NCBI GenBank assembly: GCA_040403495.1 | Contig: JBBAKM010000005.1 | Location: 23,677-87,676 of the forward strand | Origin: Bacteroidia bacterium | Lineage (GTDB): Bacteria; Bacteroidota; Bacteroidia; NS11-12g; UBA955 | Length of the DNA: 64,000 nucleotides | Reading direction: 5' to 3' | Part shown: positions 25,687-40,913 of the stretch, one piece after another | How positions within the stretch are numbered: the first letter of the stretch is position 1 | Layout: every line of letters starts with the position of its first letter | Position numbers and translations under genes: made by a program | Notes under the pieces: generated by a model | The model's input: the letters and a program-made list of their open reading frames with translations, nothing else | Databases searched by the model: none | What the model was told of the DNA's origin: nothing

Positions 25687-25870
25687 ACTATATGGGCAAA
25701 CTTACAAAAAAAATGTCAATGTTTTAGTCATCAAAGTTAACAGAACATTTAAGCTGTTTTTTTAAAAACTGTTTAATGTTTTACCCCGTTTTAGAATAAT
25801 TGATTAAAGAATAATTAATTTATATAACATGAATTGATTACTTAATGTGCCCTATTTTGTCATTTTAACA

Positions 25871-25910
25871 TCACCGTAATGTCACCGTAATGTCATGTTA
25901 ATGTCATTTG
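25871..25910 (+). promoter_or_regulatory. Three to four phased 11-bp direct repeats (TCACCGTAATG x2, TCATGTTAATG, TCATTTGAAT)
   Basis: The tandem repeats are read directly from the sequence. The 11-bp period equals one helical turn. They lie ~140-180 nt upstream of the FAS1 gene in a 364-bp divergent intergenic region. Confidence 0.4.
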
Positions 25911-26050
25911 AATTTTTTTGTTTAAACTTTAAGTAAATGAATTTCAGTTATTTGTAAAAAAGTTGTGTCAAATTTTAATTTTTGTTGAAACAAAATTAAA
26001 CAAACGATTGTATTTAATCGTGACATAAATACCATTAATATATACAAAAT

Positions 26051-28048
26051 ATGATTATTAAAAAAACCAAAAAAAACCTAATCAAAAAAACTAAACAAGT
26101 TTTTTTAATCCTTGCTGTTTTCTTTACAGCTAACCTAAGTGCACAAACCAATGTATACGACGATGTCATTGCAACCAGTGCTAATCACACCTATCTTAAA
26201 GCGGCTATTGACCAACAAAATCTTCAGTCTGCTCTCCGTGATCCCAATGCAAACCTAACCGTTTTTGCGCCAACAAATGCTGCTTTTGATAATTTAGCGG
26301 CTGCCCTAAATACCGATATCCCAGGTATTTTAGCCCTTTCTAACTTAACTGACGTTTTATTGTATCACGTTTTAGGTATTACTGTTCCTAGCGATAGTAT
26401 CCAAAACGGTCAAATCGTTACACCTTTGAATAATGATAACACTCTTAAGTTAACAAAAACAACAACCGGTAGTGTGTTTATTAATCACGCCTCTGTTTCT
26501 ACTGCTAACTTAAACACTGACAACGGAATTGTTCATGTTTTGGACGCTGTTTTGTTGCCAAGTACAACTGTAGTGGATATCGCTTTGGGTGACCAAACCA
26601 ATTTTTCTATTTTAACCAGCGCGGTTGTAAAAGCAGAATTATTACCTGCCCTAACTAACCCGTTGTCTAAACTAACCGTATTTGCCCCAACCAACACGGC
26701 TTTTGCTAATGCACTTACTTCTTTGGGTATCTCAGCCAATGATTTATTGAATTCTCCAGCTTTAGCGGATATTTTAACTTACCACGTTTTGGGAACTTCT
26801 GTTTTAAGCGACAGTATCAAAAATGGTCAAGTTGTTACGCCTCTTAACTCTGATAATACTTTAAAACTAACTAAAACTTCAACAGGTGACGTATTTGTCA
26901 ATCAAGCAAAAGTTACTGCTGCCAACGTAGCTGCTGACAATGGTTTAGTTCACGTATTGAATGCAGTTGTATTGCCTAATGAAACTGTTGTTGACATCGC
27001 ATTGGACGACCAAACTAATTTTTCTATCTTAACAACTGCTGTTGTAAAAGCGGAATTATTGCCTGTATTAACCAATCCATTTGCAAAACTAACTGTTTTT
27101 GCGCCAACTAATACTGCATTTGTAAATGCTTTAGATGCTCTTGATCTTACAGCAGATGAACTTCTTAACTCTCCTGAATTGGCTGATATTTTAACTTACC
27201 ACGTTTTGGCTACTGAAGTTGCAAGTGCAAATATCACAAACGGTCAAATAGTTACGCCTGTAAATAATGAAAATACACTTAAATTAACCAAAACTTCTAA
27301 TGGAAGTGTTTATGTGAATCAAGCCATGGTAACTACAGCCAATGTTTCTGCAGAAAACGGAATTGTTCACGTATTAAATGCAGTTGTTTTGCCAGCTGAA
27401 ACTGTTGTTGATATCGCTTTGGGTGACCAAACTAATTTCTCTACTTTAACTGCTGCTGTTGTAAAAGCTGAATTATTGCCTGCTTTAACGGATCCTTTTG
27501 CAACTTACACTGTTTTTGCGCCAACTAATACTGCTTTCAATAATTTAGCAACGGCTTTAAATACTGACTTAAATGGTATCTTAGCTTTGCCTAATTTAAC
27601 AGATGTGTTGTTGTACCACGTTCTAGGTGACGATGTTCTTTCTACTGAGTTAACCGCAGGTCCTGTAACGGCGTTAAACAACAAAACCTTAACTGTAACT
27701 GTAAGCCCAAGTGTTAAAATAAATGATGCAGATGTAACAACTGCTGATGTTGTTGCTGACAATGGTGTTGTTCACGTTATTAACAAAGTGTTAGTGCCTG
27801 CTGCTACTAATGTTAATTCTTTGGCAATCAAACAAATCAATGTATTCCCTAATCCTGCTAATGCTACTTTGAGCATCGGTGGATTTAGTAATGATAATTT
27901 CGAAATTGTAAACATGTATGGTGCTACTGTTTTAAAAGGCACTATGAACAATGGAACTATTTCTATTGATCAATTAGCCCAAGGTACTTACTCTTTAAAA
28001 GTTTCTCAATCTGACTCATTGTTTATTGGTAATTTTATAAAATTGTAG
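26051..28048 (+). CDS. Four-fasciclin (FAS1)-domain secreted protein with a T9SS C-terminal sorting domain
   Basis: There are four ~140-aa repeats containing TVFAPTNxAF and NGxVHVLxAVLLP. The CTD is VFPNPANATLSI...GTYSLKV. Confidence 0.9.
   Translation: MIIKKTKKNLIKKTKQVFLILAVFFTANLSAQTNVYDDVIATSANHTYLKAAIDQQNLQSALRDPNANLTVFAPTNAAFDNLAAALNTDIPGILALSNLTDVLLYHVLGITVPSDSIQNGQIVTPLNNDNTLKLTKTTTGSVFINHASVSTANLNTDNGIVHVLDAVLLPSTTVVDIALGDQTNFSILTSAVVKAELLPALTNPLSKLTVFAPTNTAFANALTSLGISANDLLNSPALADILTYHVLGTSVLSDSIKNGQVVTPLNSDNTLKLTKTSTGDVFVNQAKVTAANVAADNGLVHVLNAVVLPNETVVDIALDDQTNFSILTTAVVKAELLPVLTNPFAKLTVFAPTNTAFVNALDALDLTADELLNSPELADILTYHVLATEVASANITNGQIVTPVNNENTLKLTKTSNGSVYVNQAMVTTANVSAENGIVHVLNAVVLPAETVVDIALGDQTNFSTLTAAVVKAELLPALTDPFATYTVFAPTNTAFNNLATALNTDLNGILALPNLTDVLLYHVLGDDVLSTELTAGPVTALNNKTLTVTVSPSVKINDADVTTADVVADNGVVHVINKVLVPAATNVNSLAIKQINVFPNPANATLSIGGFSNDNFEIVNMYGATVLKGTMNNGTISIDQLAQGTYSLKVSQSDSLFIGNFIKL
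26147..27805 (+). repeat. Intragenic ~420-bp tandem repeats (4 FAS1 units)
   Basis: Near-identical DNA blocks occur at roughly 26570, 26990 and 27410 (GTxGAxATCGCxTTGGxxGACCAAACxAATTT...). Confidence 0.85.
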
Positions 28049-28069
28049 TTTTTTTTCTTTTGATTATCA

Positions 28070-28102
28070 AAGCCCAACTTCTTTAAAGTTGGGCTTTTTT
28101 TT
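28070..28102 (+). terminator. Rho-independent terminator
   Basis: AGCCCAACT (28071-28079) pairs with AGTTGGGCT (28087-28095), followed by a T8 run. Confidence 0.7.
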
Positions 28103-28244
28103 GAAATTAGATTTTTAAAAGGCGCTTTTCTAAGATCGAAATATGTGTTTTTATTTTTCCTAAAGGTTTTATGTTAAGCGCCATGTTTCTTGTTGTTTTT
28201 GTAAAATTTTAGCACTTTTTTGTCTGTTAAATAGATAAAAAACG

Positions 28245-28278: not shown

Positions 28279-29694
28279 ATGTCAAATACAGATTTCAGAA
28301 TTGAAAAAGACACAATGGGAGAGGTTAAAGTACCATCGCATGTGTATTGGGGAGCACAAACACAACGTTCGTTAGAGAATTTTAAAATTGGTAACCAAAA
28401 AATGCCAATTGAAATAATAAGAGCTTTTGCTATTTTGAAAAAAGCCGCAGCTATTACTAATAATAAATTAGGGGTTTTATCTCTTACTAAGTGTGATTTA
28501 ATTTGCTCAGTTTGTGATGAGATATTAGAAGGTAAATTAGACGATCAGTTTCCTTTGGTAATATGGCAAACAGGAAGTGGAACTCAAAGTAATATGAACG
28601 TGAATGAGGTTATTGCCAACCGTGCACACGTTATCAATGGTGGTTCTTTGTTGGATGAAAACAAAGTGTTGCATCCTAACGATGATGTAAATAAGTCGCA
28701 AAGTAGCAATGATACTTTCCCAACTGCCATGAGTATTGCTGCCTACAAGCAAGTAATAGATTATACCATTCCGGGAATTCAATCGCTTAAAACGACCTTA
28801 AAACACAAGTCAAGAGGCTTTAAAAATATCATTAAAATAGGAAGAACCCATTTTATGGACGCAACGCCTGTAACTCTTGGGCAAGAATTTTCGGGCTATG
28901 TTCAACAATTGAAAAATGGTGTTGACGCTATCAACAGAAGTTTGGTGCCTGCAAGCGAAATTGCATTGGGTGGAACAGCCGTTGGAACAGGAATTAATAC
29001 TCCTAAAGGTTACTCAGAATTGGTGGCCAAAACGATTGCTGAATTGTCTGGATTGCCTATTGTTTCTGCGCCAAACAAATTTGAGGCTTTAGCAGCTCAC
29101 GATGCAATGGTTGAACTACATGGTTCCCTGAAAAGAGTGGCGGTAAGTTTAATGAAAATTGGGAATGACATTAGAATGTTAAGCAGTGGTCCAAGAAGTG
29201 GAATAGGTGAAATTTTAATTCCAGACAATGAGCCAGGAAGTAGTATCATGCCAGGTAAGGTAAATCCAACACAATGTGAAGCATTAACAATGGTGTGTGC
29301 CCAAGTAATGGGTAACGATGTTGCAGTTACAATAGGAGGTTCAAATGGTCATTTTGAATTGAATGTTTTCAAACCGCTTATAGCATCCAATGTATTACAA
29401 TCAGCACGTTTATTGGGAGAAGCAGCTTTGAGTTTTGATATAAATTGTGCCAGTGGTATAGAACCTAATTTGGCTGAAATTAAAAATAAATTAGAAAATT
29501 CATTGATGTTAGTTACCGCATTAAATACGCACATTGGGTATGAGAATGCGGCTAAAATCGCTAAAAAAGCACACAAAGAAAATACTACTTTAAGACAAGC
29601 CGCTATCGGCCTTGGATTGCTAACAAATGAACAGTTTGATGAATGGGTAAAACCCGAAAATATGATTGGTAATCCTGATGAAGTAATTTCATAA
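28279..29694 (+). CDS. fumC: Class II fumarate hydratase
   Basis: It carries the lyase-1 signature [15 protein letters not shown], plus [16 protein letters not shown] and the N-terminal [14 protein letters not shown]. Confidence 0.95.
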
Positions 29695-29713
29695 TTCTAA
29701 AAAAAAATATCAA

Positions 29714-29751
29714 TAAAAAATCCCGCTTTGAATAAAAGAGGGTTTTTTTTT
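29714..29751. terminator. fumC terminator hairpin, imperfect copy (T1) of a thrice-repeated hairpin
   Basis: ATCCCGCTTT-GAATA-AAAGAGGGTT has two stem mismatches and is flanked by A and T runs. Confidence 0.5.
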
Positions 29752-29809
29752 GATTCACTATTGTTTTGAAATTTGTTTACCGTTTTTTTGAAATCGTTTT
29801 TTATTTTCA

Positions 29810-29921
29810 CCGTTCTCGCTCGTATCTTGCGAGTGAGTGTGTAAACCGACTCAGGCGTTATTAATAGTTTTTTTCCTGTGGTTGGTGTTGCGCCATGAAT
29901 GAGCGTTTGGGCACCAACCAC
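29810..29921 (+). repeat. Repeat element R1: conserved segment S followed by hairpin H
   Basis: S is CCGTTCTCGCTCGTATCTTGCGAGTGA... H is GTGGTTGGTG (29878-29887), a 24-nt loop, then CACCAACCAC (29912-29921). Confidence 0.75.
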
Positions 29922-29978
29922 TCCCAAAAGGGCAACTTGTAGGCTTCCCCAAAAACTTTATACCAAGGGAAATCAGTT

Positions 29979-30479
29979 TTACAATTTTCTTTTTATCGTT
30001 TTTCTTATGTTCTTTTTATTTTTTTCATTAATATTAATATATAATAAAAACTCTTCACTATTAAAGTAAGCCTGATTTTTAAAGTCGGAAATAATTATAA
30101 AAAAATTATAAGTTATATTTTTTTTATTAAAAAAATAATTTTTAGATTTATAAATTTGATTTTTAGAAAGAATTACACTTGACAATGAATCAGATTCATC
30201 GGTAATGAAACAATGAAACTCATTGTTAAACAAATACATTCTTTTAGTATCTAAAACAATTTTATTTTCACTTATGTTTTTAATTTCAAATGATATTATA
30301 CTGGTATCGTTAGTTTTAAGATACAAATCAAAAAACTTTGTTTTAATTTTGATATCCTCATTTTTCTTGTAAAAATTTGCATTAGCAAAAAGGGTATCAA
30401 AATATATAATTTTTTGTGCCTTTACTCTTGAACTTAAAATAAAAACAAATAGTAATGTTATAATTTTATACTTTATCAT
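29979..30479 (-). CDS. Small secreted protein, candidate immunity partner of the upstream toxin-like ORF
   Basis: It has the signal peptide LLFVFILSSRVKAQ and starts 1 nt after the upstream stop. It is visibly more AT-rich than its neighbours, and I recognise no family. Confidence 0.45.
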   Translation of the reverse strand: MIKYKIITLLFVFILSSRVKAQKIIYFDTLFANANFYKKNEDIKIKTKFFDLYLKTNDTSIISFEIKNISENKIVLDTKRMYLFNNEFHCFITDESDSLSSVILSKNQIYKSKNYFFNKKNITYNFFIIISDFKNQAYFNSEEFLLYININEKNKKNIRKTIKRKL

Positions 30480-30480
30480 A

Positions 30481-30921
30481 TTATCCTGTCACACCTGTTC
30501 TTTTACTTTTATTTTTAAATTTATCTTCAGTTCTTATTGCTTTGTTTTGCGCCCTGTCTCTATTATGATCTTTGGCAAATCTTAAACCAAAGTATAAAAT
30601 TGATTCTCCATTACTTTTGTATATTGGAAAATTATTGTGTGTGCATTCATAATATTTCCATAGTTCAAGGGAAGCTGATCCTGCTATAAGTTTAGCGACT
30701 ATAGTTACTCCATCATCACCAAGCGTATACCAAGTTATGCTAGAACTTAAACAAAATTGACCATCAAATCCTTCTCGAGAGTTACCTATAGCAATACCAT
30801 CACCTTTTTCTTGGGTGTTAAAGCCATAGCGATACTTTATGGATGCTACATATGAGCGTGTATTCATTGCACTCCCAAAGGTAGATAACTTTTTCATCCT
30901 TATTTGAGCTTGCCTTTGCAT
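30481..30921 (-). CDS. Orphan polymorphic-toxin-like C-terminal cassette
   Basis: It is 146 aa with no signal peptide. The N-terminal AMNTRSYVASIKYRYGFNTQEKGD resembles the YD/Rhs-type junction repeat (Y-x-Y-G-F-N-x-x-E-K-x-D) that precedes variable toxin domains. The frame closes only 20 codons upstream of the ATG. Confidence 0.4.
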   Translation of the reverse strand: MQRQAQIRMKKLSTFGSAMNTRSYVASIKYRYGFNTQEKGDGIAIGNSREGFDGQFCLSSSITWYTLGDDGVTIVAKLIAGSASLELWKYYECTHNNFPIYKSNGESILYFGLRFAKDHNRDRAQNKAIRTEDKFKNKSKRTGVTG

Positions 30922-31036
30922 TTTGGTACTACAATTATATGGATTATTTGGGGAAATTGGATGGGGGATTTTGTTTAGATTTCATATCAAAAGTGCTGGA
31001 TAAGAAACAAGAGAAAAAAAACAATCGTTCTTGATA

Positions 31037-31218
31037 TGGTGGTTGGTCGCAGCCGCACATGGCTTTTCTTCAGGCCAACCAAGTGAAAACGCCAGAGGCG
31101 GTATGAAAAATCACTCGCAAGATGCGAGCGAGAACGGGACATGTATAGTGGTTGGTCGCTACAACACAAGGCTTGGCTTCAGACCAACCACAGGAAAATG
31201 CTACATACCAACCAAGTG
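31037..31218 (-). repeat. Repeat element R2 (H-S-H), inverted relative to R1
   Basis: One hairpin is 31040-31048/31073-31081. The other is GTGGTTGGTC (31148-31157)/GACCAACCAC (31182-31191). Both have 24-nt loops. Between them lies the reverse complement of S (31090-31138, TCACTCGCAAGATGCGAGCGAGAACGG). Confidence 0.8.
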
Positions 31219-31230
31219 AAAAAAAATATC

Positions 31231-31269
31231 AAAAAAAAATCCCGCTTTGAATAAAAGCGGGATTTTTTT
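31231..31269. terminator. Bidirectional terminator hairpin, perfect copy (T3)
   Basis: ATCCCGCTTT (31239-31248) pairs with AAAGCGGGAT (31254-31263), with an A9 run before and a T7 run after. It lies 19 nt beyond the stop of the minus-strand OMP gene. Confidence 0.7.
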
Positions 31270-31287
31270 ATTTAGGTAAAATTTCTC

Positions 31288-32184
31288 TTAAAAATAAAAA
31301 CTTAAATTAAGCGTCGATGATGTGTTGTCTAATCCCATCCCAGAGTATGAAAGTCCATTGTTTCTAGATGATTCTGTTACAATTTGTTCTGCCTTCAAAG
31401 TTTCAGGATTAAATCTTTCCTCCACATAAGTTGCTTTTTTGCTGTTGGTTTGAATCCCTAATGAATATCCAATTTCTCCTCCAATAGATACTTTTGGTGC
31501 AATAAAATATTCAACTCCTAAAAATCCTCTTATGCCAAATGCAAAACTGCTTCCATTTTTTGATTCAATAGGTCTAGAGATTGAATAGCCGTAATTGTAA
31601 GTGTTTGGTGCAGGAAAATCGATGTTCATTGGATTCCCATATTCATAAGATTGTGAGGAGCGAGCTAAACCGATTATTGCTTCTGCGCCATAAAACCCTT
31701 GAAGTCTAGTAGAACCTTTTCTTTTTTCAAAACCAAAACCAATGAGGAATTGAGATGATTTGTAAATGTTTTTATCATAAACAAATTCGGGTGTAAAAAA
31801 GTTAGGATTAGTTACGTCTTTTCTTACAGCATTTGTTTGGCTATAACGACTCGTGTTCGCCATTAAACGACCTCTGTAAAATAAATTTTGTTTTTTAACG
31901 TATTTCACGAAAATGTTATTGCCTCCCATATTATTAAAAATGGTGTTGTTGGGGGTATAGGTAGGATTAAAATATGGTGCATTGTTGTATGAATTATTAT
32001 TCATCATATTGCCAGCAAACTCAAGAAATGGATTAGCAGAAATGCCAAATGACCAATCTCCTGCCTGAGGAAGAACTTCAACGCCCTTTTTGTTTTTAAT
32101 GCTGTTCTCCACATGTTGCCCATTTGCATTTATTGCATACAGACCTATGACAAAACAACTTAAGGTATAAAATATTTTTTTCAT
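31288..32184 (-). CDS. Outer-membrane beta-barrel protein
   Basis: It has a signal peptide and Gly/Tyr/Asn-rich alternating strands. The C-terminal strand LNLSFYF ends in Phe. Confidence 0.65.
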   Translation of the reverse strand: MKKIFYTLSCFVIGLYAINANGQHVENSIKNKKGVEVLPQAGDWSFGISANPFLEFAGNMMNNNSYNNAPYFNPTYTPNNTIFNNMGGNNIFVKYVKKQNLFYRGRLMANTSRYSQTNAVRKDVTNPNFFTPEFVYDKNIYKSSQFLIGFGFEKRKGSTRLQGFYGAEAIIGLARSSQSYEYGNPMNIDFPAPNTYNYGYSISRPIESKNGSSFAFGIRGFLGVEYFIAPKVSIGGEIGYSLGIQTNSKKATYVEERFNPETLKAEQIVTESSRNNGLSYSGMGLDNTSSTLNLSFYF

Positions 32185-32217
32185 TGTATTAATTAATTAA
32201 GATTGTTGATAGTTAGC

Positions 32218-33105
32218 TTATTGAAAATCATAATTTCTGACAGCAATTTCACCTTTATTAACAGCAATATAAGAAGAGCCTCCTCCAAATAATGTATAAG
32301 TGTAATTGCTTGGGGTGCATCCCATCCCCGGATTGGTTTTTCTGTCTGCATTAAATTGAACTCCTCTGATGTAAAAACCTTTGCTATTGGAATAGGATTC
32401 ACATGAAAATTCATACTTGCCGTTAGCGTCTACATTTAATGTAACTTGTTTGTTTCTTCCCCAATCGTCATTCCATTCTACTAGTAATTTAGTGTTAGCT
32501 GGTGCTTGTGAATATTGAGCATCTCCAACTACACATAAATCATTTCTAAATCTAACATCACCTTTAATACTCATTATGCCAACTTCTGGAGTAAGGTTAC
32601 TTCTGTATTCAAAGTTTTGTGTGTAAGACTGGCCTTTAAATAAATTTAAATTGATAGAACTGCCTGTCGAATTGTAAAATGTTTTGGGAGAACTTACCCC
32701 TAATTCATTTTTTTGAGTCGCATTTACAATATAGGCTGTATATACTGTCGCATTTAATGGTTTTGAGCCAGCTTCCACTTCTACAGAATAGTTTCCTAAA
32801 GCGTCTGTCGTTGCAGAATAGGTTCTATACCCATTGGCAACATTGCCCCAATACCATACAGTATAATTGTTGATGAGGTCTTGATTGTTAATTACTACTG
32901 TTACTGTGACACCTTCCATTCCCTCACTCAATGTGCCATTATTTAAATCTAAGTCACCTGAAATATTTCCTTTAACTGTTACTTTCCCAAGTTCGGTTAC
33001 AGGTGTTGTGTTTTTTGTGTCACTGTCTTTTTCACAAGATGATAATGAAAATAAGACAGGTAGGGCAATAAATGCCATTACTGATTTTAAGATTTGTTGT
33101 TTCAT
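32218..33105 (-). CDS. Lipoprotein with Ig/carboxypeptidase-regulatory-like beta-sandwich repeats
   Basis: The lipobox is FSLSSC. Segments such as KVTVKGNISGD and GNYSVEVEAG resemble CarbopepD_reg-like folds. Confidence 0.5.
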   Translation of the reverse strand: MKQQILKSVMAFIALPVLFSLSSCEKDSDTKNTTPVTELGKVTVKGNISGDLDLNNGTLSEGMEGVTVTVVINNQDLINNYTVWYWGNVANGYRTYSATTDALGNYSVEVEAGSKPLNATVYTAYIVNATQKNELGVSSPKTFYNSTGSSINLNLFKGQSYTQNFEYRSNLTPEVGIMSIKGDVRFRNDLCVVGDAQYSQAPANTKLLVEWNDDWGRNKQVTLNVDANGKYEFSCESYSNSKGFYIRGVQFNADRKTNPGMGCTPSNYTYTLFGGGSSYIAVNKGEIAVRNYDFQ

Positions 33106-33248
33106 TTTTAAATTTTTAATTAATTGGTTAGTACAAAACTAATAGGCCAATAATTATTAATAAATGACGATTGTCACAAAATTGGTTATTTTAAGTCATT
33201 TGTGCTTTTTTAAAAAAATAGGATGAGCGTCATAAGTTTTTTAGGTTA

Positions 33249-33289
33249 CCTCTCATCTTGCGAGTTATTTATCATACCGCCTTTGGCGG
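33249..33289 (+). repeat. Repeat element R3 (S segment only)
   Basis: CCTCTCATCTTGCGAGTTATTTATCATACCGCCTTTGGCGG aligns closely with the reverse complement of 31090-31130. Confidence 0.65.
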
Positions 33290-33381
33290 ATGTAAAAATG
33301 AAAATTCAGCTATATGAAATTCTTTTTCAAAATAAAATCTTATCATTATAAAACAAGTCCTTACTAAATTTCAACCGAAGG

Positions 33382-33498
33382 GAAAATACAACGTTAAGAC
33401 AAGCCGCTATCGACCTAGGTTTGCTAACAAATGAACAGTTTGATGAATGGGTAAAACCTGAAAATAAGATAGGTAATCCTGATGAAGTAATTTCATAA
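33382..33498 (+). pseudogene. Displaced duplicate of the last 38 codons plus stop of fumC
   Basis: It translates to [38 protein letters not shown], against fum[40 protein letters not shown] counted 8 substitutions in 117 nt. There is no upstream coding continuation. Confidence 0.9.
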
Positions 33499-33502
33499 TT
33501 CT

Positions 33503-33542
33503 AAAAAAAAATCCCGCTTTGAATAAAAGCGGGATTTTTTTT
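33503..33542. terminator. Bidirectional terminator hairpin, perfect copy (T2)
   Basis: ATCCCGCTTT (33511-33520) pairs with AAAGCGGGAT (33526-33535), flanked by A and T runs. Confidence 0.7.
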
Positions 33543-33626
33543 GATTCACTATTGTTTTGAAATTTGTTTACCGTTTTTTGGGGGTAGATAAACGCAATAC
33601 GTTTCGTATTTACAGTTTTTATCAAT

Positions 33627-34340
33627 CTAAGGCATTATATATTGTCCAAATTTGATCAACCACAAATAATATCCAAGTATTCCACCTGAAAGGCCTGAAA
33701 GTAAAAAAGTCAGTACTTTAGTCTTTGGCAATAAACGTAAAATATGAATAAGAATGCCCAAACCAATCAACCCTGTGATGATTTGAATAGACCAAATATT
33801 GATGTCTAAATGACGAGCAAGAACCATTTCGTCTCCACTAATATAAGTTTGACCATTTCTGAAAAATGATATTACTGCCACAAATAGATTAGCAACTTGC
33901 CTTAACCAAAATAATGAGATAAATATAAGAGTCCAACCAATCAAAGAAACTTTATCAGAGGTGATGTGCTTTTTTCTATATACAAGTAAAAGAAAAAAAC
34001 CAATAGTGCCTGTTAGTGTTGTTTGAAGTGGACCTCCAAGTGTTATCCAGAAATTATCTGCATGATATTTTTGTGCTGTTTTAAGATATTTTGATTTGCC
34101 AGGAAAGTCTAGTTTGTTTTTAAGTTCGTATGAATAGTTTTCATAAGTGTTACTTAAGTATTCAATTAAATCATTGTCCCAGTGTGACGAACTTTGATAA
34201 TTAATACTTGCTTCATATCCTAATAGTTTTGAAACAGAATAATGTCCTAGTTCGTGAGTTAATGTCCCAACAACAGTCATAAGAATGAATGTTAATATTA
34301 GGTAAATGGAAAGTTTGTAATCAAATTTTAAGTATTTCAT
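33627..34340 (-). CDS. Multi-pass membrane protein with an intramembrane HExxH motif (M50/S2P-like or DUF3267-like metalloprotease)
   Basis: HELGH lies within the first TM helix (VVGTLTHELGHYSV). There are about 5 further TM helices. Confidence 0.5.
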   Translation of the reverse strand: MKYLKFDYKLSIYLILTFILMTVVGTLTHELGHYSVSKLLGYEASINYQSSSHWDNDLIEYLSNTYENYSYELKNKLDFPGKSKYLKTAQKYHADNFWITLGGPLQTTLTGTIGFFLLLVYRKKHITSDKVSLIGWTLIFISLFWLRQVANLFVAVISFFRNGQTYISGDEMVLARHLDINIWSIQIITGLIGLGILIHILRLLPKTKVLTFLLSGLSGGILGYYLWLIKFGQYIMP

Positions 34341-34553
34341 GTTGTTGTTTTGGTTAATCTAATAGTTTGGGTCTAAGTTTTTGGGCGGTACAGAGGCTTC
34401 GGGATTTTAGTATCTCGGATCAGGTGAGATACGACTGCAACGAACTAGAATAGGAGCATAATTCCTGAATTTTATGAGTCTATTTTTTTTCGTCAGTTCG
34501 GCCGACACAGAACCCTTGAAATGCAACGTATTTAATGGTTTTTCATTTTGTTT

Positions 34554-35417
34554 TTATTGTATTTTTCTTCCTTTGAAACTGAATTTTGTAATTTTAACTT
34601 CTGAATTTTGTGTTATTGTTGAATAATAATACTCTGCATTTACATGATTTATTTTATTTAAATTTAAGTAACCATTATAAATTTCAATCCCCTTGTCATT
34701 AAACATCATCCAATTTCCACTAAATATTTGTCCAGTAAAAATGAAATCATGACTAGCGATTGTATCTCCATCATTTAAAAAATTTACTAAGGTAATATGA
34801 CCAGAGTTTGTATCCTTTTCTTTTATATCTATTTTAAAGTAACCATTTGGGTAAATGCCAACATAATACTTATATGTATGCCATGGCAGTATTTCAACAA
34901 TGCTACTGTCTTTCGAACCAGTAAATAAAACTTTAAATTTACCAATAATTGGAAGTTTTGGTATCGGCATCATATACCAACGCTTCAACACAGTGTCTAT
35001 TCCATCATCATTTTTAATACAAGTCTGCTTCGCTCTAAATCCAATCATTTGACATTGGTAAAACCCTTCAGGTACATTACTGAAAATTCGAACAAAACTT
35101 TTACTTATTATTGTTTCTGAACCTAACTTCCATATGACTGAATCATAAATACTATGAGCTGTAAATTTAAATCTTTCTTTATTTACAAAAACACTATCCT
35201 TATCATGAACATAATTTTTTATCCCTAAAAAATACTCTTCTGTTCCCCATTGGCTTCCAAATGTAAAACCAAAATTGGCAGTTTTTTTCCCATAGCAAGG
35301 ATCATAGTTCTCGCACTTTGGGTTGCTAGGGTCTTGACAAGGTGGGCAATCCTTTTTACAACTGTTAAAAAATAACATAACAAACAAGGCTAGGGTTATT
35401 TTAATTATTTTAAGCAT
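34554..35417 (-). CDS. Cys-rich lipoprotein, paralogue 1
   Basis: The N-terminus is MLKIIKITLALFVMLFFNSC, followed by KKDCPPCQDPSNPKCENYDPCYGKK. The first ~45 aa are nearly identical to those of the gene at 38334-39200. Confidence 0.7.
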   Translation of the reverse strand: MLKIIKITLALFVMLFFNSCKKDCPPCQDPSNPKCENYDPCYGKKTANFGFTFGSQWGTEEYFLGIKNYVHDKDSVFVNKERFKFTAHSIYDSVIWKLGSETIISKSFVRIFSNVPEGFYQCQMIGFRAKQTCIKNDDGIDTVLKRWYMMPIPKLPIIGKFKVLFTGSKDSSIVEILPWHTYKYYVGIYPNGYFKIDIKEKDTNSGHITLVNFLNDGDTIASHDFIFTGQIFSGNWMMFNDKGIEIYNGYLNLNKINHVNAEYYYSTITQNSEVKITKFSFKGRKIQ

Positions 35418-35518
35418 ATCGGTATTAGTATTTGAGGTTTTATTAAAGCACAGTCTTTTTTACATGCATATAGGCTAAGTATTAAAAAAAGTGCCGTTAG
35501 TTTTAATGAATTTTTCAT
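35405..35518 (-). CDS. Conserved 37-codon small ORF (lipoprotein-signal-like) overlapping the start of paralogue 1
   Basis: It encodes MKNSLKLTALFLILSLYACKKDCALIKPQILIPICLK*. Its stop overlaps the downstream ATG (ATGCTTAAAATAA, 13-nt overlap). The paralogous copy at 39188-39301 differs mainly by synonymous changes. Confidence 0.5.
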   Translation of the reverse strand: MKNSLKLTALFLILSLYACKKDCALIKPQILIPICLK

Positions 35519-35592
35519 AATTTCACTTGTTACGAGTTGTATTTATTTTGATATTCATTGCTATGTCTCTAAATGCAGCAAACTATCAAATA

Positions 35593-35626
35593 CAGCACAA
35601 ACGCCCTACTACGGGCGTTTGTGCTG
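35593..35626 (-). terminator. Strong hairpin terminator after the T9SS cargo gene
   Basis: A 14-bp perfect stem CAGCACAAACGCCC/GGGCGTTTGTGCTG with a 6-nt loop lies 34 nt beyond the stop at 35660. Confidence 0.65.
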
Positions 35627-35659
35627 AAAGGTGAAGACTCGTTATATTTAGCATTATTA

Positions 35660-38326
35660 TCAATAGTTGCTTTGAATTATCAGTTTCTCTGTTTTTTGGG
35701 TATTGCCGCATGTAATTCTAACAAAATAAATACCTGCAGCTAAGCCATTGGTTTCTATGTGTTGAGAAGTTTGTTTACCATTGTAGCTGTTATTGAACAA
35801 CACCTTGCCCGTTACATCCATTAATGCAATGCTGTAATCTTGTTCATTGTTGTTAAAGATAGAAATGGTGAAGTTGGCGGTGGTGGGGTTAGGGGAGAGT
35901 TTGAAAGCTACCTTAGATTTTTGTTTAATAGCTTCTTCTTCTCTGATTTGTCTTGCTTCATATTCTTCTTTTTCTCTTTTTACTGCAGATTGAGAAAATC
36001 TTTGAGCTTTGTATTTATTATTGTTGCCACAAAATGATGATACTTGAGCGTATGTTTGTGGTGGTTGTGGGATTTTATCCCAAGGGAATCCAACAATTAA
36101 TTCAATGTCAGGTGAAATTTTAGCGCCAGGCATTAATTCAAAACCATTCATAGAATAAATTTTAACTTTTTTTCCATTGGTTGTTGACATTTGTGCTGTG
36201 ATAAAAACTGGACCTTCAAAAAATAATTGTTCATTAATGTTGAATTGCACATCAGTGTCAAATTCTTTTATACCTTTTTTAAAGTTTGGCAATAATTTAT
36301 TATCGATAGAGGAATATGGGTCAGAATTAAGCGTTTTGATTTTTACTGGATAAGTGTGATTTAAGTAAAAAGTGTTATTTTTATTATCTGTTCCAATATC
36401 ATTCGAAACTCCAATGACTTTTATTTGAAAAAAAGCATATTTCATCAAACTATCTTCATTAAATTGAAGAAATGGTAAACCTAATTTTGTTATATCAAAT
36501 CTTAATGGCAAGTTTGCAAAATCATCAATATCAACATAAGGAGTGTTGAAGTTATACATGGAATTACTTTCAGAATAAAAATTAATAGGTGTAATAATAG
36601 AACTATCCACTAGGCAAGAAGATCGATAGTGTAAATTAATTGGGGGCCCAATGTTAATAAGATTCACCTTTAAACTTGAATTAATTGGGGGACCGTTGTT
36701 AATTGGCATTTTGACAACTAATCTTACTTGAATCTTAGATTTATTTATGTTAATATTTACTTTAGGGTTAAATACATATTTTAATTTTTCCGAAAGTAGA
36801 AAAGAGTAAGACAGATTTGCGAACATAGTTATTTCGCCATTAACATAAGTACTACATTCAGTTCGTTTTATATGTACTCCCAATTCAGGTGTCTCTAAAA
36901 TAGACAGAACACCTAGTCTTTCATTATATGTAGGATAAGAAGGAATCCATGTGCCTTGCTTGTTAGTGTTTGATTGCATTTGTTTATCAGACCAATTCGA
37001 TCCAGGCAATGCCAATGATATATGGGTAGCAGCAATTTCATCTTTTAATGTAAAAGTGCCAGAAGCTGTAATGGCGCCAGTAATAGTAGTTGCTGCATTA
37101 TCACTACTTTTACATCCATTAACCAGTGATGACAAAAAGGTTGTATTTGCATCTAATATTTTTTGACCTGCTGCTATTTGTTTAGTTAAATCTGCTTTAA
37201 GTGTAGATGAAGTGGTAACATCCTTAAAACTGCCATTAACAACTGAAAACATTTTTTCGGCACAGGTTAAATAGTTTTTTAGCTTATCAAGATTGTCTCT
37301 TTCAGTTTGATTTCTATTTGGATGATCTCTAACTACATCTATTAAATCAATAAATGCTTTATAGTTTACAACAGCCCCACCAGTTTTAATGGCTACAGCT
37401 CCTGAAACTCCTGCAGCTAAAATTCTTCCAAATGCCATTTTACCATAGTCTTGTGTTCCTTTTTTCTCTGTTTTTATACCGCCTGACAACTTTCCTGTGA
37501 TATCAATATTTGCAGTTTGTACAAATGCAAATGAAACATCTAGTTGAACTTTGTTGTTGCAAACACAGGGGTCATAAGTCACTGGTAAATCAAACCAGAA
37601 AAACACTTTAGGATTGTTGGTGTATTTTACAAATACGGCAATGGAACTTTCATCTGTTTCTTGGTCTAAAGGCTGAACTGTTTCGCCTTGAATGCTTAAT
37701 AAATTGGTGGCTTTCAAGTCTGGATTGTAAACATTGATATATGTTTGACCCTGTTTTAATGGAGATTGAGTTGGTATTCTCAATTCAATTCTCACAGTTT
37801 CATAAGTGTTATCAGGCTCTAATAAAGAACCAAAAAAACGCATGGTACCAGAATATTTATTGTACAAAATCATATAGGGTAGTTTAGGCCTCTCATTGCT
37901 AACCGTGTTTGGCCCAGGTTGTACATCAACCCCTAAACCAATATTCCCATTTGAACCAAACTCAACTTTCAATAATTCCCAGCCATCTTCCGGATGGTAA
38001 TTGCTATTATGATTGTCTGTCAGATTGCCATAACTGGCATTTATTGGACCATTAAAAGGATTGCGAATCCATGTCGGATTTTGATCATCATTATAATACA
38101 CCCAAAAACGTTCATCAGGCACATTTCCTCCAGGCGTATGTTTTACTCTCCAATCGAAATTATTAACCAAATTGGGGCATTCCGGGTTTACATGGTTATT
38201 GGGGTTTGTAGAAATGCCTTTGCCTGTTTCGCAATTTTGTGCGGCAGGGTTAGGGGTGCAGGTTTGACTTATAAGCCTTGTTTGGGTTATAAGAAGTATT
38301 ACTATTGCTATTATTATTTTTTTCAT
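35660..38326 (-). CDS. Large orphan secreted protein with a T9SS C-terminal sorting domain
   Basis: The preferred start is MKKIIIAIVILLITQTRLISQ, which avoids overlap with the upstream gene (the ORF track extends to 38371). The CTD is KLSPNPTTANFTISI...GIYFVRITCG. I recognised no catalytic motif. Confidence 0.7.
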   Translation of the reverse strand: MKKIIIAIVILLITQTRLISQTCTPNPAAQNCETGKGISTNPNNHVNPECPNLVNNFDWRVKHTPGGNVPDERFWVYYNDDQNPTWIRNPFNGPINASYGNLTDNHNSNYHPEDGWELLKVEFGSNGNIGLGVDVQPGPNTVSNERPKLPYMILYNKYSGTMRFFGSLLEPDNTYETVRIELRIPTQSPLKQGQTYINVYNPDLKATNLLSIQGETVQPLDQETDESSIAVFVKYTNNPKVFFWFDLPVTYDPCVCNNKVQLDVSFAFVQTANIDITGKLSGGIKTEKKGTQDYGKMAFGRILAAGVSGAVAIKTGGAVVNYKAFIDLIDVVRDHPNRNQTERDNLDKLKNYLTCAEKMFSVVNGSFKDVTTSSTLKADLTKQIAAGQKILDANTTFLSSLVNGCKSSDNAATTITGAITASGTFTLKDEIAATHISLALPGSNWSDKQMQSNTNKQGTWIPSYPTYNERLGVLSILETPELGVHIKRTECSTYVNGEITMFANLSYSFLLSEKLKYVFNPKVNININKSKIQVRLVVKMPINNGPPINSSLKVNLINIGPPINLHYRSSCLVDSSIITPINFYSESNSMYNFNTPYVDIDDFANLPLRFDITKLGLPFLQFNEDSLMKYAFFQIKVIGVSNDIGTDNKNNTFYLNHTYPVKIKTLNSDPYSSIDNKLLPNFKKGIKEFDTDVQFNINEQLFFEGPVFITAQMSTTNGKKVKIYSMNGFELMPGAKISPDIELIVGFPWDKIPQPPQTYAQVSSFCGNNNKYKAQRFSQSAVKREKEEYEARQIREEEAIKQKSKVAFKLSPNPTTANFTISIFNNNEQDYSIALMDVTGKVLFNNSYNGKQTSQHIETNGLAAGIYFVRITCGNTQKTEKLIIQSNY

Positions 38327-38333
38327 CTTTAAT

Positions 38334-39200
38334 TTACATTTTAGTTCCATGAAATTCATAATTAAGTTCACCTGAGGGAGGGCTGAACTTAAATTTTCTT
38401 GATATGTATTTATTATTGTTTTGAATAAAAACTATTGATGTTTCTGACATATATCTAGTATGGATAGAATTTGTATTATTCGGAGTTAAATACCTAATAA
38501 TTTGTGATTTATAGTTAAAACAAACTTCAGGATTTCCAGAACTTTTTGGAAGCATTAATGTGTCAGCAATTGGCAAGCCTATAATTAGTGCGAATGGCGC
38601 TGGCACACCTCTAAAACTCCCTTTTTCTAATTGAAAAAATTCCATCACAACCTCCTTTTTAGGTTCGTGTGCAAAATATCCTTTGTATTTAATTGAGGTT
38701 TCTCCATTTTCTAATAAAAGTATAGGTTTTTGGGTAAAAAACAGATTTCTAGTTATGGAAACCAAAGTGTCTTTAGGATTTGTAATACAAGAATTTATAG
38801 GCGTGCGAATGGTAAGTTTTATCGGTATCCATCTCTCCCAACCATTATCACGCAAGTAATCGCCAAAATCTACTTCTAAACCTTTCCCTTTTCTGGGGTT
38901 TACTTCTGTGCCTATTTGCCACTCATAAGTGCTGTTGGCTGGGTTGCCATCGGGTGCATCAAAACGCACACTGCTGGCGTTAAATGTGTCGCAGGGTATT
39001 AGGTTACACCATTCTTCAGGTGGTTTAAAGCCTCTATCTCCCGGGCGCACTTTAAAAAGGGTATTAATGTTTTTTTTGCCATAACATGGATCGTAGTTCT
39101 CGCACTTTGGATTGCTTGGGTCTTGGCAACACTCCTTTTTACATGTGCTAAAAAACAACACTACAAACAGGGCTAGAGTTAGTTTAATTATTTTAAGCAT
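38334..39200 (-). CDS. Cys-rich lipoprotein, paralogue 2
   Basis: The preferred start is MLKIIKLTLALFVVLFFSTC at 39200, followed by KKECCQDPSNPKCENYDPCYGKK. The track's extension to 39248 runs through the upstream small ORF. Confidence 0.7.
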   Translation of the reverse strand: MLKIIKLTLALFVVLFFSTCKKECCQDPSNPKCENYDPCYGKKNINTLFKVRPGDRGFKPPEEWCNLIPCDTFNASSVRFDAPDGNPANSTYEWQIGTEVNPRKGKGLEVDFGDYLRDNGWERWIPIKLTIRTPINSCITNPKDTLVSITRNLFFTQKPILLLENGETSIKYKGYFAHEPKKEVVMEFFQLEKGSFRGVPAPFALIIGLPIADTLMLPKSSGNPEVCFNYKSQIIRYLTPNNTNSIHTRYMSETSIVFIQNNNKYISRKFKFSPPSGELNYEFHGTKM

Positions 39201-39301
39201 AGTGGTATGGGGTTTTGGGTTGTTGTTGAGGCACAGTCTTTCTTGCATGCCGCAAGACTCAATACTAAAAAGAGTGCCGTTAATTTTAATAAACTTTTCA
39301 T
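39188..39301 (-). CDS. Conserved 37-codon small ORF (lipoprotein-signal-like) overlapping the start of paralogue 2
   Basis: It encodes MKSLLKLTALFLVLSLAACKKDCASTTTQNPIPLCLK*. It has the same 13-nt ATGCTTAAAATAA overlap and begins 4 nt after the stop of the upstream gene. Confidence 0.5.
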   Translation of the reverse strand: MKSLLKLTALFLVLSLAACKKDCASTTTQNPIPLCLK

Positions 39302-39305
39302 AACA

Positions 39306-40520
39306 TTACTTATTAAGGATGGCGTTTAATTTCGATTCTAATTCTCTTAGTCGAGCTTCTTGGGCTTTCAATTGCTCGTCTTGTTGAATAGTGTAAAGTG
39401 TTAGTTCTTCTATTTTTTGTTGTTGCAGTTTTTGTAATTCTCCCACATCTTGTCCGCTGTTCATCACACTGTCTTGGCTAGGCATGCCCGGCAAGTGGTG
39501 TTTGGTGTTAATGAACTTAGCAACTTCACTCAATGGCATTAAATTATAATTGCTATGAAATACAAAATCGGGCCACCACTGGGCATTAACAATTACTTCT
39601 GTAGCACGAAGGTTACCTCTTAGTTCTGTGTTGCCATTTGCTTCCATTCTAAGTCCGCCTTGACCGTTTCCACCCCAAGGTGCAATTACAAATCCTGAGT
39701 TTACATTTAAATTCGAACCATTAATACCCATACCATCAGTAAAAAACAGTCCTTGGTCTTGATCCTTTGAAATATTGTTGAAACCTGAGTTTGATAAGTT
39801 TGATACAAAATGCATGTGTTTAGTATAACTATTGGTTGCATTAGAACTATTTATTCCAAAAATAGCAGTTGGTAAATTTTTTAAATTTCCACTTCTAACA
39901 TCTAATGAAACCCTTGGTGATGGCATGTTTATACCCGTATTGCCTGAAGGTGCAACTAAAAATCTTGTTGCATCTAAGGCTGGGTTATTTGGATCATAAG
40001 TTTTAGCGGTCAACAGTGGTTGAGGTGTAGATGATAATGAAATTGTCGGTCCCCCTCCTGTTGTGCCTATTATTCCAATTTGTGGAACAGTTAATGTTGG
40101 ATAATAAGTTAAGTCAATTAAAGTTGAATTTTCTTGCCATGATGGATTAGTGGCTGCTATTTGGTGTAATATGTTAGGGTTAAAAATATCTACTCCATTG
40201 TTAAATGAAAAACCAGGGAATGGATTGCAACTGTTATTTTTCATAATCAATAGCCCTTTGTTTTGATCAGGGCAATAATTTATTTCAAGCCAAGCTTTTG
40301 GATTGTTGGTCCCTATTCCCACCGAATTATTGTCTGAAGATGTAGAGCTTAATGTAGGTCCATTCTGTGGAATACTTGGAGCTGAATTACCGTTCCATGT
40401 TCCAGGGGTTTGAGAATGTAAGTCTGTAATCATAGCTAAAGACAAAAATAAGAAAGAAAAGCTAAAAAGTTTGGTTAATCTCTTTTGAAAAGTTAGTGTT
40501 TTGTTTGATAATAAGCTCAT
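39306..40520 (-). CDS. Secreted tail-fibre-like protein with a conserved Bacteroidetes C-terminal WPDxVF/coiled-coil module
   Basis: It has a signal peptide and SVGIGTNNPKAWLEI (the VGIGTxxPxxxL motif common in fibre-like Bacteroidetes proteins). The C-terminus is WWPDFVFHSNYNLMPLSEVAKFINTKHHLPGMPS...KIEELTLYTIQQDEQLK. Confidence 0.55.
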   Translation of the reverse strand: MSLLSNKTLTFQKRLTKLFSFSFLFLSLAMITDLHSQTPGTWNGNSAPSIPQNGPTLSSTSSDNNSVGIGTNNPKAWLEINYCPDQNKGLLIMKNNSCNPFPGFSFNNGVDIFNPNILHQIAATNPSWQENSTLIDLTYYPTLTVPQIGIIGTTGGGPTISLSSTPQPLLTAKTYDPNNPALDATRFLVAPSGNTGINMPSPRVSLDVRSGNLKNLPTAIFGINSSNATNSYTKHMHFVSNLSNSGFNNISKDQDQGLFFTDGMGINGSNLNVNSGFVIAPWGGNGQGGLRMEANGNTELRGNLRATEVIVNAQWWPDFVFHSNYNLMPLSEVAKFINTKHHLPGMPSQDSVMNSGQDVGELQKLQQQKIEELTLYTIQQDEQLKAQEARLRELESKLNAILNK

Positions 40521-40898: not shown

Positions 40899-40906
40899 TA
40901 AATTTG
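40899..40906 (+). promoter_or_regulatory. Candidate -7 box TAAATTTG immediately upstream of the carboxyltransferase gene
   Basis: It matches TAnnTTTG and ends 8 nt before the ATG at 40914, which would imply a near-leaderless mRNA. Confidence 0.25.
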
Positions 40907-40913
40907 CAAGTAC

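Follow-up and report, generated by a model that had tools for sequence, protein, structure and literature searches.

A repeated fumC 3′ end in a strain-variable envelope-gene block of a freshwater Bacteroidota species is most likely a recombination scar

In aquatic bacteria, flexible genomic islands of the replacement or the additive kind sit at a fixed locus among core genes, hold strain-specific gene sets with exposed envelope cargo and show a boundary excess of mostly synonymous substitutions, and homologous recombination between clonal frames was proposed as the means of their exchange (Lopez-Perez, Martin-Cuadrado & Rodriguez-Valera 2014, PMC4033161). For the effector-immunity displacement arrays of Rhs/CDI systems and of the Vibrio cholerae T6SS, homology-facilitated illegitimate recombination was proposed (Kirchberger et al. 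2017, PMC5361080); the works cited in that paper include Jackson et al. 2009, de Vries & Wackernagel 2002 and Meier & Wackernagel 2003. Here, we compared with these systems a locus in a 64-kb window (the whole stretch of DNA that was analysed, 64,000 nucleotides) of an uncultured freshwater Bacteroidota lineage, in which the 3′ end of fumC recurs downstream of an envelope-gene block. We conclude that this fumC-tail repeat is most likely a recombination scar in a strain-variable block rather than an integrase-driven footprint.

The locus is bounded by two core genes. The left anchor, fumC (28279 to 29694, plus strand), encodes a class II fumarate hydratase of 471 aa (Pfam Lyase_1, 7.5e-108; FumaraseC_C, 8.4e-27) with 99% amino acid identity to P0121 and 97% nucleotide identity to the relatives L176 and L178. 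The right anchor is a carboxyltransferase gene, CT (Carboxyl_trans, 4.5e-148), lying with its border at 40868 to 42551 on the plus strand; the border itself, at 40867/40868, is 46 nt upstream of the CT start codon, and all alleles converge there. Between the anchors, module 1 (29979 to 30921, minus strand) consists of two small ORFs of 166 aa (with a signal peptide) and 146 aa without a family match, and module 2 (31288 to 33105, minus strand) codes for a 298-aa outer-membrane beta-barrel-like protein and a 295-aa lipoprotein, with a lipobox (LSSC) and a C-terminal ...SFYF in the translations and weak NCBIfam matches to OMP_TP0733 and Riean_0653. Together they make up block R, which contains only envelope-protein genes and REP-like repeats. 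Block D (33627 to 40520, minus strand) has five genes that are of the envelope type by domain searches and translations: a 237-aa HELGH membrane protein, two paralogous lipoproteins (287 and 304 aa), a 903-aa T9SS-sorted protein and a 404-aa secreted protein. The cargo is thus predicted, from a Por_Secre_tail (T9SS) domain, lipoprotein signal peptides, an OMP-like beta-barrel end and the membrane protein, to be exposed cell-envelope proteins, the kind of structure that flexible islands encode.

To define the variation at this locus, we compared same-species relatives whose flanks are 95.5 to 98% identical in nucleotide sequence. At least four alleles were found between fumC and CT, namely E, R, D-like and W, and an L163-type is also listed. 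An empty allele, which an earlier note on this DNA had proposed to look for, does exist: in allele E (L178 and L179) fumC is followed by a 206-nt spacer and then CT. Allele R (L162, L164, L166, L167 and runs X8 to X10) carries the 3.5-kb block R alone, without the right-hand repeat and without block D; all R-type contigs part from the window exactly at 33249/33250, and 139 to 145 unrelated nt then lead to CT (joint 33249 to 40868 in X9 and X10). Module 1 varies among R-type strains, as seen in a joint from 29928 to 30910 in X10 and a reduced depth in X3, and module 2 was found in R- and W-type strains. In the D-like allele of L176, other envelope genes (a T9SS protein, lipoprotein paralogs and others, including divergent counterparts of block D) follow fumC directly, without the 3.6-kb block. 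Allele W, that of the window, reads fumC (with repeat copy A), terminator, block R, a 132-nt unit, an orphan fumC end (repeat copy B), terminator, block D and CT; it was found in nine runs (X1, X2 and X25 to X31, with contigs across module 2, the unit and copy B). In X3, a depth flow of 105.8 splits into 70.3 and 34.3, which suggests that in about two-thirds of that population fumC and its terminator are followed by 33580 onward, with the 237-aa gene of block D directly after fumC; a simple model of two strains does not account for the module 2 depth in that run (69). The window's block D is 5 to 6.4% diverged from the X3 version, against 1.3 to 3% for the core. Thus, gene content differs within one species at a fixed locus, with fumC and CT flanking every allele, and since the two genes are also found 3 to 7 kb apart in distant Bacteroidota, this appears to be an old slot with variable filling. 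The view of the site as an integration scar is thus supported for a hot spot of insertion with empty sites, and not supported for its att-like, site-specific part, since block R occurs without the right repeat and no recombinase gene was found in the 64 kb.

The repeat itself was confirmed by repeat search, blastn and alignment, including the eight coding substitutions reported earlier. Copy A (29578 to 29788, plus strand) comprises the last 38 codons of the functional fumC, the stop codon, the terminator and 37 nt beyond, i.e., an 8-nt ancestral spacer (GATTCACT) and a 29-nt tail common to the left ends of R and D islands. Copy B (33382 to 33579, plus strand) is an orphan fragment of 38 codons and a stop without an upstream reading frame, followed by a perfect, bidirectional terminator and a 37-nt flank. 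Within the window, the repeat search returned two segment pairs, 29578 to 29708 with 33382 to 33512 (131 nt, 94%) and 29712 to 29788 with 33503 to 33579 (77 nt, 96%), and blastn a single 211-column alignment (E = 3.8e-69, ~94% identity). Six of the eight substitutions in the 117 coding nt are synonymous, and at least six of eight would be expected under neutrality with P = 0.0018; the nonsynonymous ones are G443 (A) versus D (B) and M (A) versus K (B). G443 was found in the window strain only, with D in all FumC relatives inspected, and the M-to-K change of copy B is confined to the window, X25 and X28 having T at 33467. This synonymous bias suggests that the copies are alleles from different lineages. 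Consistent with this, copy A has the alleles of the R-type strains X8 to X10 except at 29609, and copy B, whose alleles are the population consensus, agrees with the functional fumC of L176, L178 and L179 at five of the eight sites. Since A alleles go with R strains and B alleles with E and D strains, mainly by synonymous differences, two parental lineages are implied. Moreover, the last 117 nt of fumC differ between copy A and L176 at six positions (5%, mostly synonymous; core, 1.3 to 3%), the boundary excess seen in flexible islands.

The fumC terminator hairpin occurs three times in the 64 kb and nowhere else in the window. Hairpin A (29715 to 29751) is weakened by two stem changes, GAGGGT in place of GCGGGA, and the folding energies (A, −14.3; middle, −21.5; B, −22.5 kcal/mol) agree with the claim that the hairpin is better preserved in copy B, and likewise in the middle copy. 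This middle copy, M, was known as a bare 39-nt hairpin (31231 to 31269); we found it to extend over 54 to 55 nt (31219 to 31272) of the fumC terminator region, with 96% identity to L176 11470 to 11524 and 94% to 29700 to 29750. M is terminator-like on the minus strand and doubles as the predicted terminator of the 298-aa gene. A 12-nt indel had been read as an insertion common to copies A and M, and hence as a sign of successive insertion events. This reading was overturned, because TATCAAAAAAAA stands at the indel site in the terminator of the functional fumC in each of L176, L178 and L179, and copy B of X25, X26 and X27 retains 12 to 13 nt there: it is the window's copy B that has lost the 12 nt, the character is ancestral, and the shared-insertion argument fails. 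Successive events still fit M itself as a second, older terminator duplication, and the duplications start at different points of fumC, at codon 433 for copy B and directly past the stop for M. Contigs of X25 run in a closed cycle of 2.29 kb from the B terminator to module 2, a junction of M with B rather than of A with B, and module 2 has about twice the depth of its flanks; this form is a cycle or a tandem between two terminator copies. Together with copies B of X25 and X28, which are A/B mosaics, it indicated that the repeats are recombinogenic.

Short palindromic units accompany the modules of block R. Units b′ and c′ (29790 to 29930), at the left edge of module 1, have inverted matches to 31077 to 31137 and 31174 to 31198 and are present or absent by strain (joint 29751 to 29870 in X10). 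The repeat search also delineated a cluster a-b-c (31036 to 31203) with a variant in X10 (31060 to 31170), whose core (31087 to 31139) is multi-copy in metagenomes, with a depth in X3 of 425 versus 70 to 110 and many loose ends at 31087/31108 and 31135 to 31139. Units a, b and c are imperfect palindromes of 50 to 60 nt (z −1.8 to −2.7), intergenic, multi-copy and arranged in mosaic clusters, as are REP/BIME elements. They matched no Rfam family, and they were found only in block R, with none in the other ~100 kb of same-species loci. The 132-nt unit (33250 to 33381), composed of a truncated b′ and ~93 nt, forms the joint of block R with the orphan fumC end, and its part from 33250 to 33355 recurs elsewhere in relatives' genomes at 86 to 88%.

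Taken together, we consider it probable that the fumC-CT spacer is a flexible genomic island, that the window's allele joins an R and a D allele additively, and that the fumC tail is the scar of this recombination. The spacer would be a hot spot at which strains of one freshwater Bacteroidota species hold different envelope-protein gene sets, and the DNA of two strains, one R-type and one D-type, would have been joined by one homologous cross-over in fumC or CT and, at the other end, by an illegitimate joint at codon 433 of a D-type fumC, beside a REP-like unit; such joining would amount to homology-facilitated illegitimate recombination, to which a single cross-over with a circularised fragment is equivalent. 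Because the incoming piece would have brought its own fumC end and terminator, the resident end would have been displaced and kept as an orphan, and an older event of the same kind may have left M. The near-identical terminators, each also ending a minus-strand module, could then serve as portable homology at which RecA-type recombination deletes, duplicates or converts sequence, and a dedicated recombinase would not be needed. Homology is continuous through fumC and from 40868 on, with sharp non-homologous joints at 33249/33250 and 33381/33382, the pattern of a homologous anchor plus a non-homologous joint with foreign DNA added. What speaks against a clean illegitimate joint is the 132-nt repeat unit, which separates block R from copy B and obscures the original joint; no convincing microhomology was seen by eye at either joint. 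The SNP density to the right of 40868 revealed no breakpoint by which to tell the recipient strain type.

Three other explanations were weighed against this origin. An assembly artefact, i.e., a chimeric contig joining two co-occurring haplotypes at the fumC end or the terminator, had to be considered, as the lineage is known here from metagenomes only, strains with different alleles co-occur in X3, and the public runs were used as contigs built with k=31, a setting at which the 39- to 51-nt hairpin repeat collapses. However, the novel joint (33249 to 33382) is spanned by independent contigs in nine runs from at least six studies (for example, a 2211-nt contig of X1 over 31240 to 33450 and an 819-nt contig of X26 over 33050 to 33854), and the depth in X1 and X2 is uniform (11 to 15×) over copy A, the block, copy B and beyond, so that a chimera is hardly conceivable. 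A purely local history, in which an in situ tandem or segmental duplication including the fumC end was followed by deletions and the exchange of modules, and in which homologous recombination with other strains replaced the allele of copy A, would draw on the tandem forms that unequal exchange between terminator copies seems to yield in X25, on the partial conversion of the X25 and X28 B copies toward A, and on the position of copy A in a recombining core gene, where synonymous-biased differences could postdate the duplication. We regard this history as unlikely, since it takes several extra steps to bring the R and the D modules onto opposite sides; R and D-like alleles occur separately in other strains, and two parents explain the linkage of A with R and of B with E/D in one step.

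A similarly low probability was assigned to site-specific integration, by which a recombinase of the tyrosine or serine type, encoded elsewhere in the genome or on a lost helper, would have inserted a cargo-only element with a surrogate fumC 3′ end into an attB at the end of fumC, leaving A and B as attL and attR. The direct repeats of a gene 3′ end, ~200 nt long and bracketing 3.6 kb, indeed resemble those of an integrative element, empty sites exist, the displaced copy has the consensus alleles and the proximal one "foreign" alleles, as if an element had restored the gene end, and M and the cycle-like contig of X25 would suggest repeated use of one site. Nevertheless, Pfam and NCBIfam searches detected neither integrase nor excisionase nor transposase domains anywhere in the 64-kb window, the block included, in agreement with the earlier note, nor did the Pfam annotation of relatives show any, and the window has no tRNA gene. 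R strains carry the block without a second fumC end, so the block is not defined by att sites; moreover, the duplications begin at codon 433 in one case and just past the stop in the other, the X25 cycle is M × B rather than A × B, and the differences are scattered over the repeat instead of leaving one identical core between divergent arms. No A × B joint was present in the contigs of 16 runs, in which rare forms would not be revealed; a joint in X4 that goes back 3762 was rejected as such a junction, being a 30-nt deletion variant of flank A.

A bolder reading, which we hold to be doubtful, would make the fumC terminator a reusable, recombinase-independent landing pad for envelope cassettes. 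Each cassette would end with its own copy of one bidirectional terminator, and cassettes would be stacked by fumC through homology-anchored recombination and then shuffled, duplicated or lost by terminator exchange, so that the locus would function like an integron array, but driven by RecA. In this reading, the illegitimate joints would be marked by REP-like units, and the 2.3-kb cycle of X25 would represent an excised cassette circle that could enter the fumC end of any strain again. If terminators were such portable recombination sites, the locus would offer a simple natural model of integrase-free cassette accretion and could serve to test a link of surface-protein turnover to phage pressure.

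With additive joining at a flexible island as the favored origin, the locus shows, at nucleotide resolution, a small envelope-gene island diversifying in uncultured freshwater Bacteroidota, with empty, single and composite alleles coexisting at fumC-CT in natural populations. It suggests that an att-like duplication of a gene end can arise without any integrase, and it advises caution in annotation, as direct repeats of a gene 3′ end are insufficient for calling an integrative element.

The feature is of an ordinary kind, resolved here in some detail. As in the attL/attR of elements that target gene 3′ ends, a direct repeat brackets foreign DNA, with the intact gene at the proximal copy and a fragment at the distal one; unlike in those elements, no integrase or excisionase was found in the window, the block also occurs without the distal repeat, the duplication boundaries differ between events and an identical core is lacking. 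Units a, b and c resemble REP/BIME units in being short imperfect palindromes of mosaic order and orientation, multi-copy and strain-variable, but differ in having no sequence relation to described Rfam families and no RAYT-type transposase seen in the 64-kb window. With the islands of PMC4033161, fumC-CT shares the fixed locus, the envelope cargo and the synonymous boundary excess; in contrast to them, it has an empty allele, is small (0.2 to 11 kb), has modules parted by copies of one terminator, and in the window adds two alleles together and leaves an orphan gene end. Finally, compared with the displacement arrays of PMC5361080, the anchor is a housekeeping TCA-cycle gene instead of a polymorphic toxin, the cargo is of the envelope type instead of toxin/immunity pairs, and the displaced fragment has no plausible function; as in those arrays, a conserved upstream gene would serve as the homologous anchor, the incoming module would carry its own 3′ end, the old 3′ end and the downstream genes would be pushed back and kept as orphans, no integrase would take part, and successive events would build arrays.

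The window, which has a G+C content of 35%, represents Bacteroidota DNA encoding T9SS sorting domains; near-verbatim sequence was found in two public freshwater metagenome runs (X1 and X2), and sequence with 1-3% divergence in many other runs. The repeat lies at the 3′ end of the class II fumarate hydratase gene fumC (28279-29694, plus strand). Nucleotides 29578-29788, comprising the last 38 codons, the stop, the terminator and 37 further nt (copy A), were found again at 33382-33579 (copy B), with no reading frame upstream of the latter. The two copies gave repeat matches of 131 nt at 94% and 77 nt at 96%, and blastn aligned them over a single stretch of 211 columns (E = 3.8e-69). Eight sites differ in the 117 coding nt, six of them synonymous (P = 0.0018), so that the duplication with eight coding substitutions described in an earlier note was confirmed by repeat search, blastn and alignment. 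The 64 kb contain exactly three occurrences of the hairpin AAAAAAAATCCCGCTTTGAATAAAAGCGGGATTTTTTTT, the third copy (M) lying at 31219-31272. It is weakened in A (−14.3 kcal/mol) and perfect in M and B (−21.5 and −22.5 kcal/mol), and both its third occurrence and its better preservation in B than in A had been correctly anticipated. The same note took the 12-nt TATCAA(T/A)AAAAA for an insertion shared by A and M, and here the polarity is the reverse: because the functional terminators of three relatives (contigs L176, L178, and L179) carry the 12 nt, the element is ancestral and was deleted in the window's copy B. B copies of other strains retain 12-13 nt at this position.

Every gene located between fumC and CT, the carboxyltransferase gene (40914-42551), is encoded on the minus strand. 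Along the plus strand, fumC is followed by terminator A, the REP-like units b′ and c′ (29790-29930), module 1 (166-aa and 146-aa ORFs with no family match), units a-b-c (31036-31203), M, module 2 (a 298-aa OMP-like protein and a 295-aa lipoprotein), a 132-nt unit with a truncated b′ at its start (33250-33381), copy B, and block D (33627-40520). Besides a 237-aa membrane protein with a HELGH motif, block D encodes two lipoproteins that are paralogs of each other, together with a T9SS-sorted protein (903 aa) and a secreted one (404 aa); modules 1 and 2 together form block R (about 3.5 kb). Every terminator copy is placed just downstream of a minus-strand module, A being downstream of fumC as well. 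Searches with Pfam and NCBIfam detected no integrase, excisionase or transposase in the whole 64-kb window, as the earlier note had stated, and precomputed Pfam annotation revealed none in the syntenic relatives. The window contains no tRNA genes.

Several features of block D were observed alongside. The 237-aa ORF (33627-34340), which has a HELGH motif and a weak Peptidase_M50 match, belongs to a membrane protein conserved widely in Bacteroidota (more than 130 homologs), for which gene callers begin at Met21 to give 217 aa. Since relatives carry this gene at 74-83% identity in unrelated contexts, it is a core-like gene captured in the island; we also considered that it adjoins fumC in more distant relatives, where, however, the gene is located elsewhere and homology stops at 33618. 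The 287-aa and 304-aa lipoproteins (34554-35417 and 38334-39248) are paralogs whose signal peptide and N-terminus (MLKIIK.TLALFV..., CQDPSNPKCENYDPCYGKK) are nearly the same and whose bodies diverge, and three such genes stand in tandem in L176 (15748-18409). Between the 903-aa protein and the 986-aa protein of L176, conservation is confined to the T9SS C-terminal sorting domain. Constant export signals with diversified bodies would be expected for surface proteins under diversifying selection.

Units a, b, and c (31036-31203, 29790-29930, and 33250-33355) constitute a family of REP/BIME-like palindromic units. The unit b core (31087-31139) is multicopy in metagenomes, with a depth of 425 versus about 110 in X3 (about 4-fold that of the chromosome) and many different flanks, and neither the window outside block R nor about 100 kb of same-species loci contain it. 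Strains have gained and lost units, as seen at the joints 29751→29870 and 31060→31170 in X10. No Rfam family was matched at the gathering threshold, and the sub-threshold matches (Thr_leader and similar) recognize the terminator hairpin only. Integron attC-like sites were rejected, as on inspection the a/c stems are unlike RYYYAAC/GTTRRRY cores and no IntI was found.

Comparison of same-species relatives revealed four alleles between fumC and CT. Empty sites, for which the earlier note had proposed a search, do exist: in L178 and L179, which come from two samples and have flanks 96.6-98% identical to the window, 206 nt separate the fumC stop from the CT start (allele E). In the R allele, fumC, the terminator, module 1 and module 2 are present without copy B and without block D. 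A single contig in X9 and X10 links 33249 to 40868 via about 145 unrelated nt, with zero depth over 33.7-40.3 kb, and four independent assemblies (L162, L164, L166, and L167) run from the module 2 gene through 33249 and 139-145 nt into CT. L176, the 1-Mb JGI contig Ga0620987_00044 with 97.4% identity to the window across 10 kb upstream, carries a D-like allele, in which fumC and its terminator are directly followed by a different 8.6-kb gene set (DUF4145, a T9SS protein of 986 aa, three lipoproteins paralogous to one another, and a protein of 389 aa) and then CT; window positions 40780-40867 are also present in this contig. The window's own arrangement (W) was recovered repeatedly, as contigs from nine runs of several studies (X1, X2, and X25-X31), 1-3% divergent from the window, span the joint of module 2, 132-nt unit and copy B, and that of X26 extends past the terminator into the 237-aa gene. 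The B-type fragment was found in none of X3-X5, X7-X10, or X20. In X3, the contig holding the fumC end has a depth of 105.8 and divides beyond the hairpin into branches of 34.3 (b′, module 1) and 70.3 (33580, 237-aa gene); these depths of collapsed contigs suggested that fumC is directly followed by the 237-aa gene in about two-thirds of the X3 population. A simple model of two strains does not account for the module 2 depth of 69 in this run. In distant Bacteroidota, too, CT follows fumC on the same strand at a distance of 3-7 kb, and this linkage together with the four alleles indicated that the locus is an old slot with variable filling. A further filling was seen in L163 (1-626), where the gene preceding CT is a different one, on the minus strand (144 aa, partial), and just the final ~85 nt of the R-type spacer is shared.

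A second strain-specific indel (25714-28194) is located immediately upstream of fumC. The window and X3/X4 contain the gene for a 665-aa fasciclin-repeat T9SS protein (26051-28048), which is missing from L176, L178, and L179, where fumC lies within ~70 nt after BatA.

The eight sites distinguishing A and B were compared among strains. The functional fumC of L176/L178/L179 is B-like at five, A-like at two and like neither at one, while R-type X8-X10 have the A alleles except at 29609. The A alleles are therefore linked to block R, and copy B represents a consensus-type fumC end such as accompanies E and D. Block D diverges by 5-6.4% from the X3 version, versus 1.3-3% for the core, and this divergence and the allele linkage point to two parental lineages and not to a duplicate that drifted in place. 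The glycine of A (AAIGLG) is unique to the window strain, and every FumC relative inspected has aspartate; the lysine of B is confined to copy B of the window, ATG being kept in X25 and X28. The glycine (GGC) is at FumC residue 443 (29608-29610), with Asp in copy B and X8-X10 (AAIDLGLL), and represents a nonsynonymous change at a conserved C-terminal-domain position.

These comparisons showed that W combines an R allele with a D allele, the link between them being the repeat unit and the orphan fumC end. Strains with an R or a D-like allele alone exist too, and R lacks the right-hand repeat. Chimeric assembly was excluded as the source of W, since nine independent contigs span the junction and depth is uniform in X1 and X2. 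The insertion had been read as the att-like scar of site-specific integration; polymorphism at a hot spot is upheld by the allele comparison, whereas the scar found no support. A site-specific recombinase acting in trans, for which we found no positive evidence and which is contradicted by the R strains lacking the second repeat, is improbable. We likewise doubt that a purely local duplication was followed by replacement, which requires more steps and leaves the linkage of allele to island type unexplained.

We reasoned instead that a DNA fragment of one strain type probably recombined into the other. One cross-over would have been homologous, within fumC or CT, and the second joint illegitimate, at codon 433 of the D-type fumC. 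The process may have been homology-facilitated illegitimate recombination, or a circularized fragment may have entered by a Campbell-type single cross-over; each would add DNA and displace the resident gene end. An SNP-density scan right of 40868 gave no signal of a recombination breakpoint. M, whose flank resembles the E spacer, appears to be a relic of a previous event of similar kind, by which module 1 would have come to separate fumC from an older order of fumC, terminator and module 2. The two duplications start at different points, which speaks against a fixed cross-over site.

In X25, contigs close a 2.29-kb cycle (31794→33512→31227→31351→31792; window 31227-33512) comprising module 2, the 132-nt unit, fumC fragment B, the terminator and module 2 again, with module 2 at a depth of 5-7× versus 3-4× for the flanking junctions (~2-fold). 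This fits a tandem duplication or a free circle from M × B exchange, and could also be a misjoin across the 39-51-nt hairpin repeat. In X25 and X28, copy B combines alleles of A and of B in a mosaic, suggestive of gene conversion. Judged from this cycle and these mosaics, the repeats are active recombination substrates. A joint in X4 (33566→29805), considered as a circle junction, comes from a variant of flank A that lacks 30 nt and was mapped onto B. That a terminator-anchored, integrase-free system accretes cassettes at fumC seems unlikely.

FumC was also scanned against genome and metagenome contigs, and among the matches listed, L001 showed 93% aa identity, all other relatives being at ≤77% with no common synteny downstream of FumC. 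L001 (MAG KLAP35) is the nearest other species among these matches; in comparison with window 19.7-29.7 kb, its syntenic neighbors upstream of fumC are just 45-74% identical, and synteny stops exactly at the fumC stop. The 93% value would reflect either an unusually conserved fumC or exchange between lineages.

Among known systems, attL/attR of integrative elements resemble the fumC-CT locus in the repeat itself only, as neither a recombinase in the 64 kb nor the same repeats wherever the element occurs were found. [quoted passage not shown] Flexible genomic islands of aquatic bacteria occupy a fixed locus, carry envelope cargo and have boundaries rich in synonymous changes (PMC4033161), and the fumC-CT locus agrees with them in locus, cargo and boundaries; it is a further case of this already known kind.
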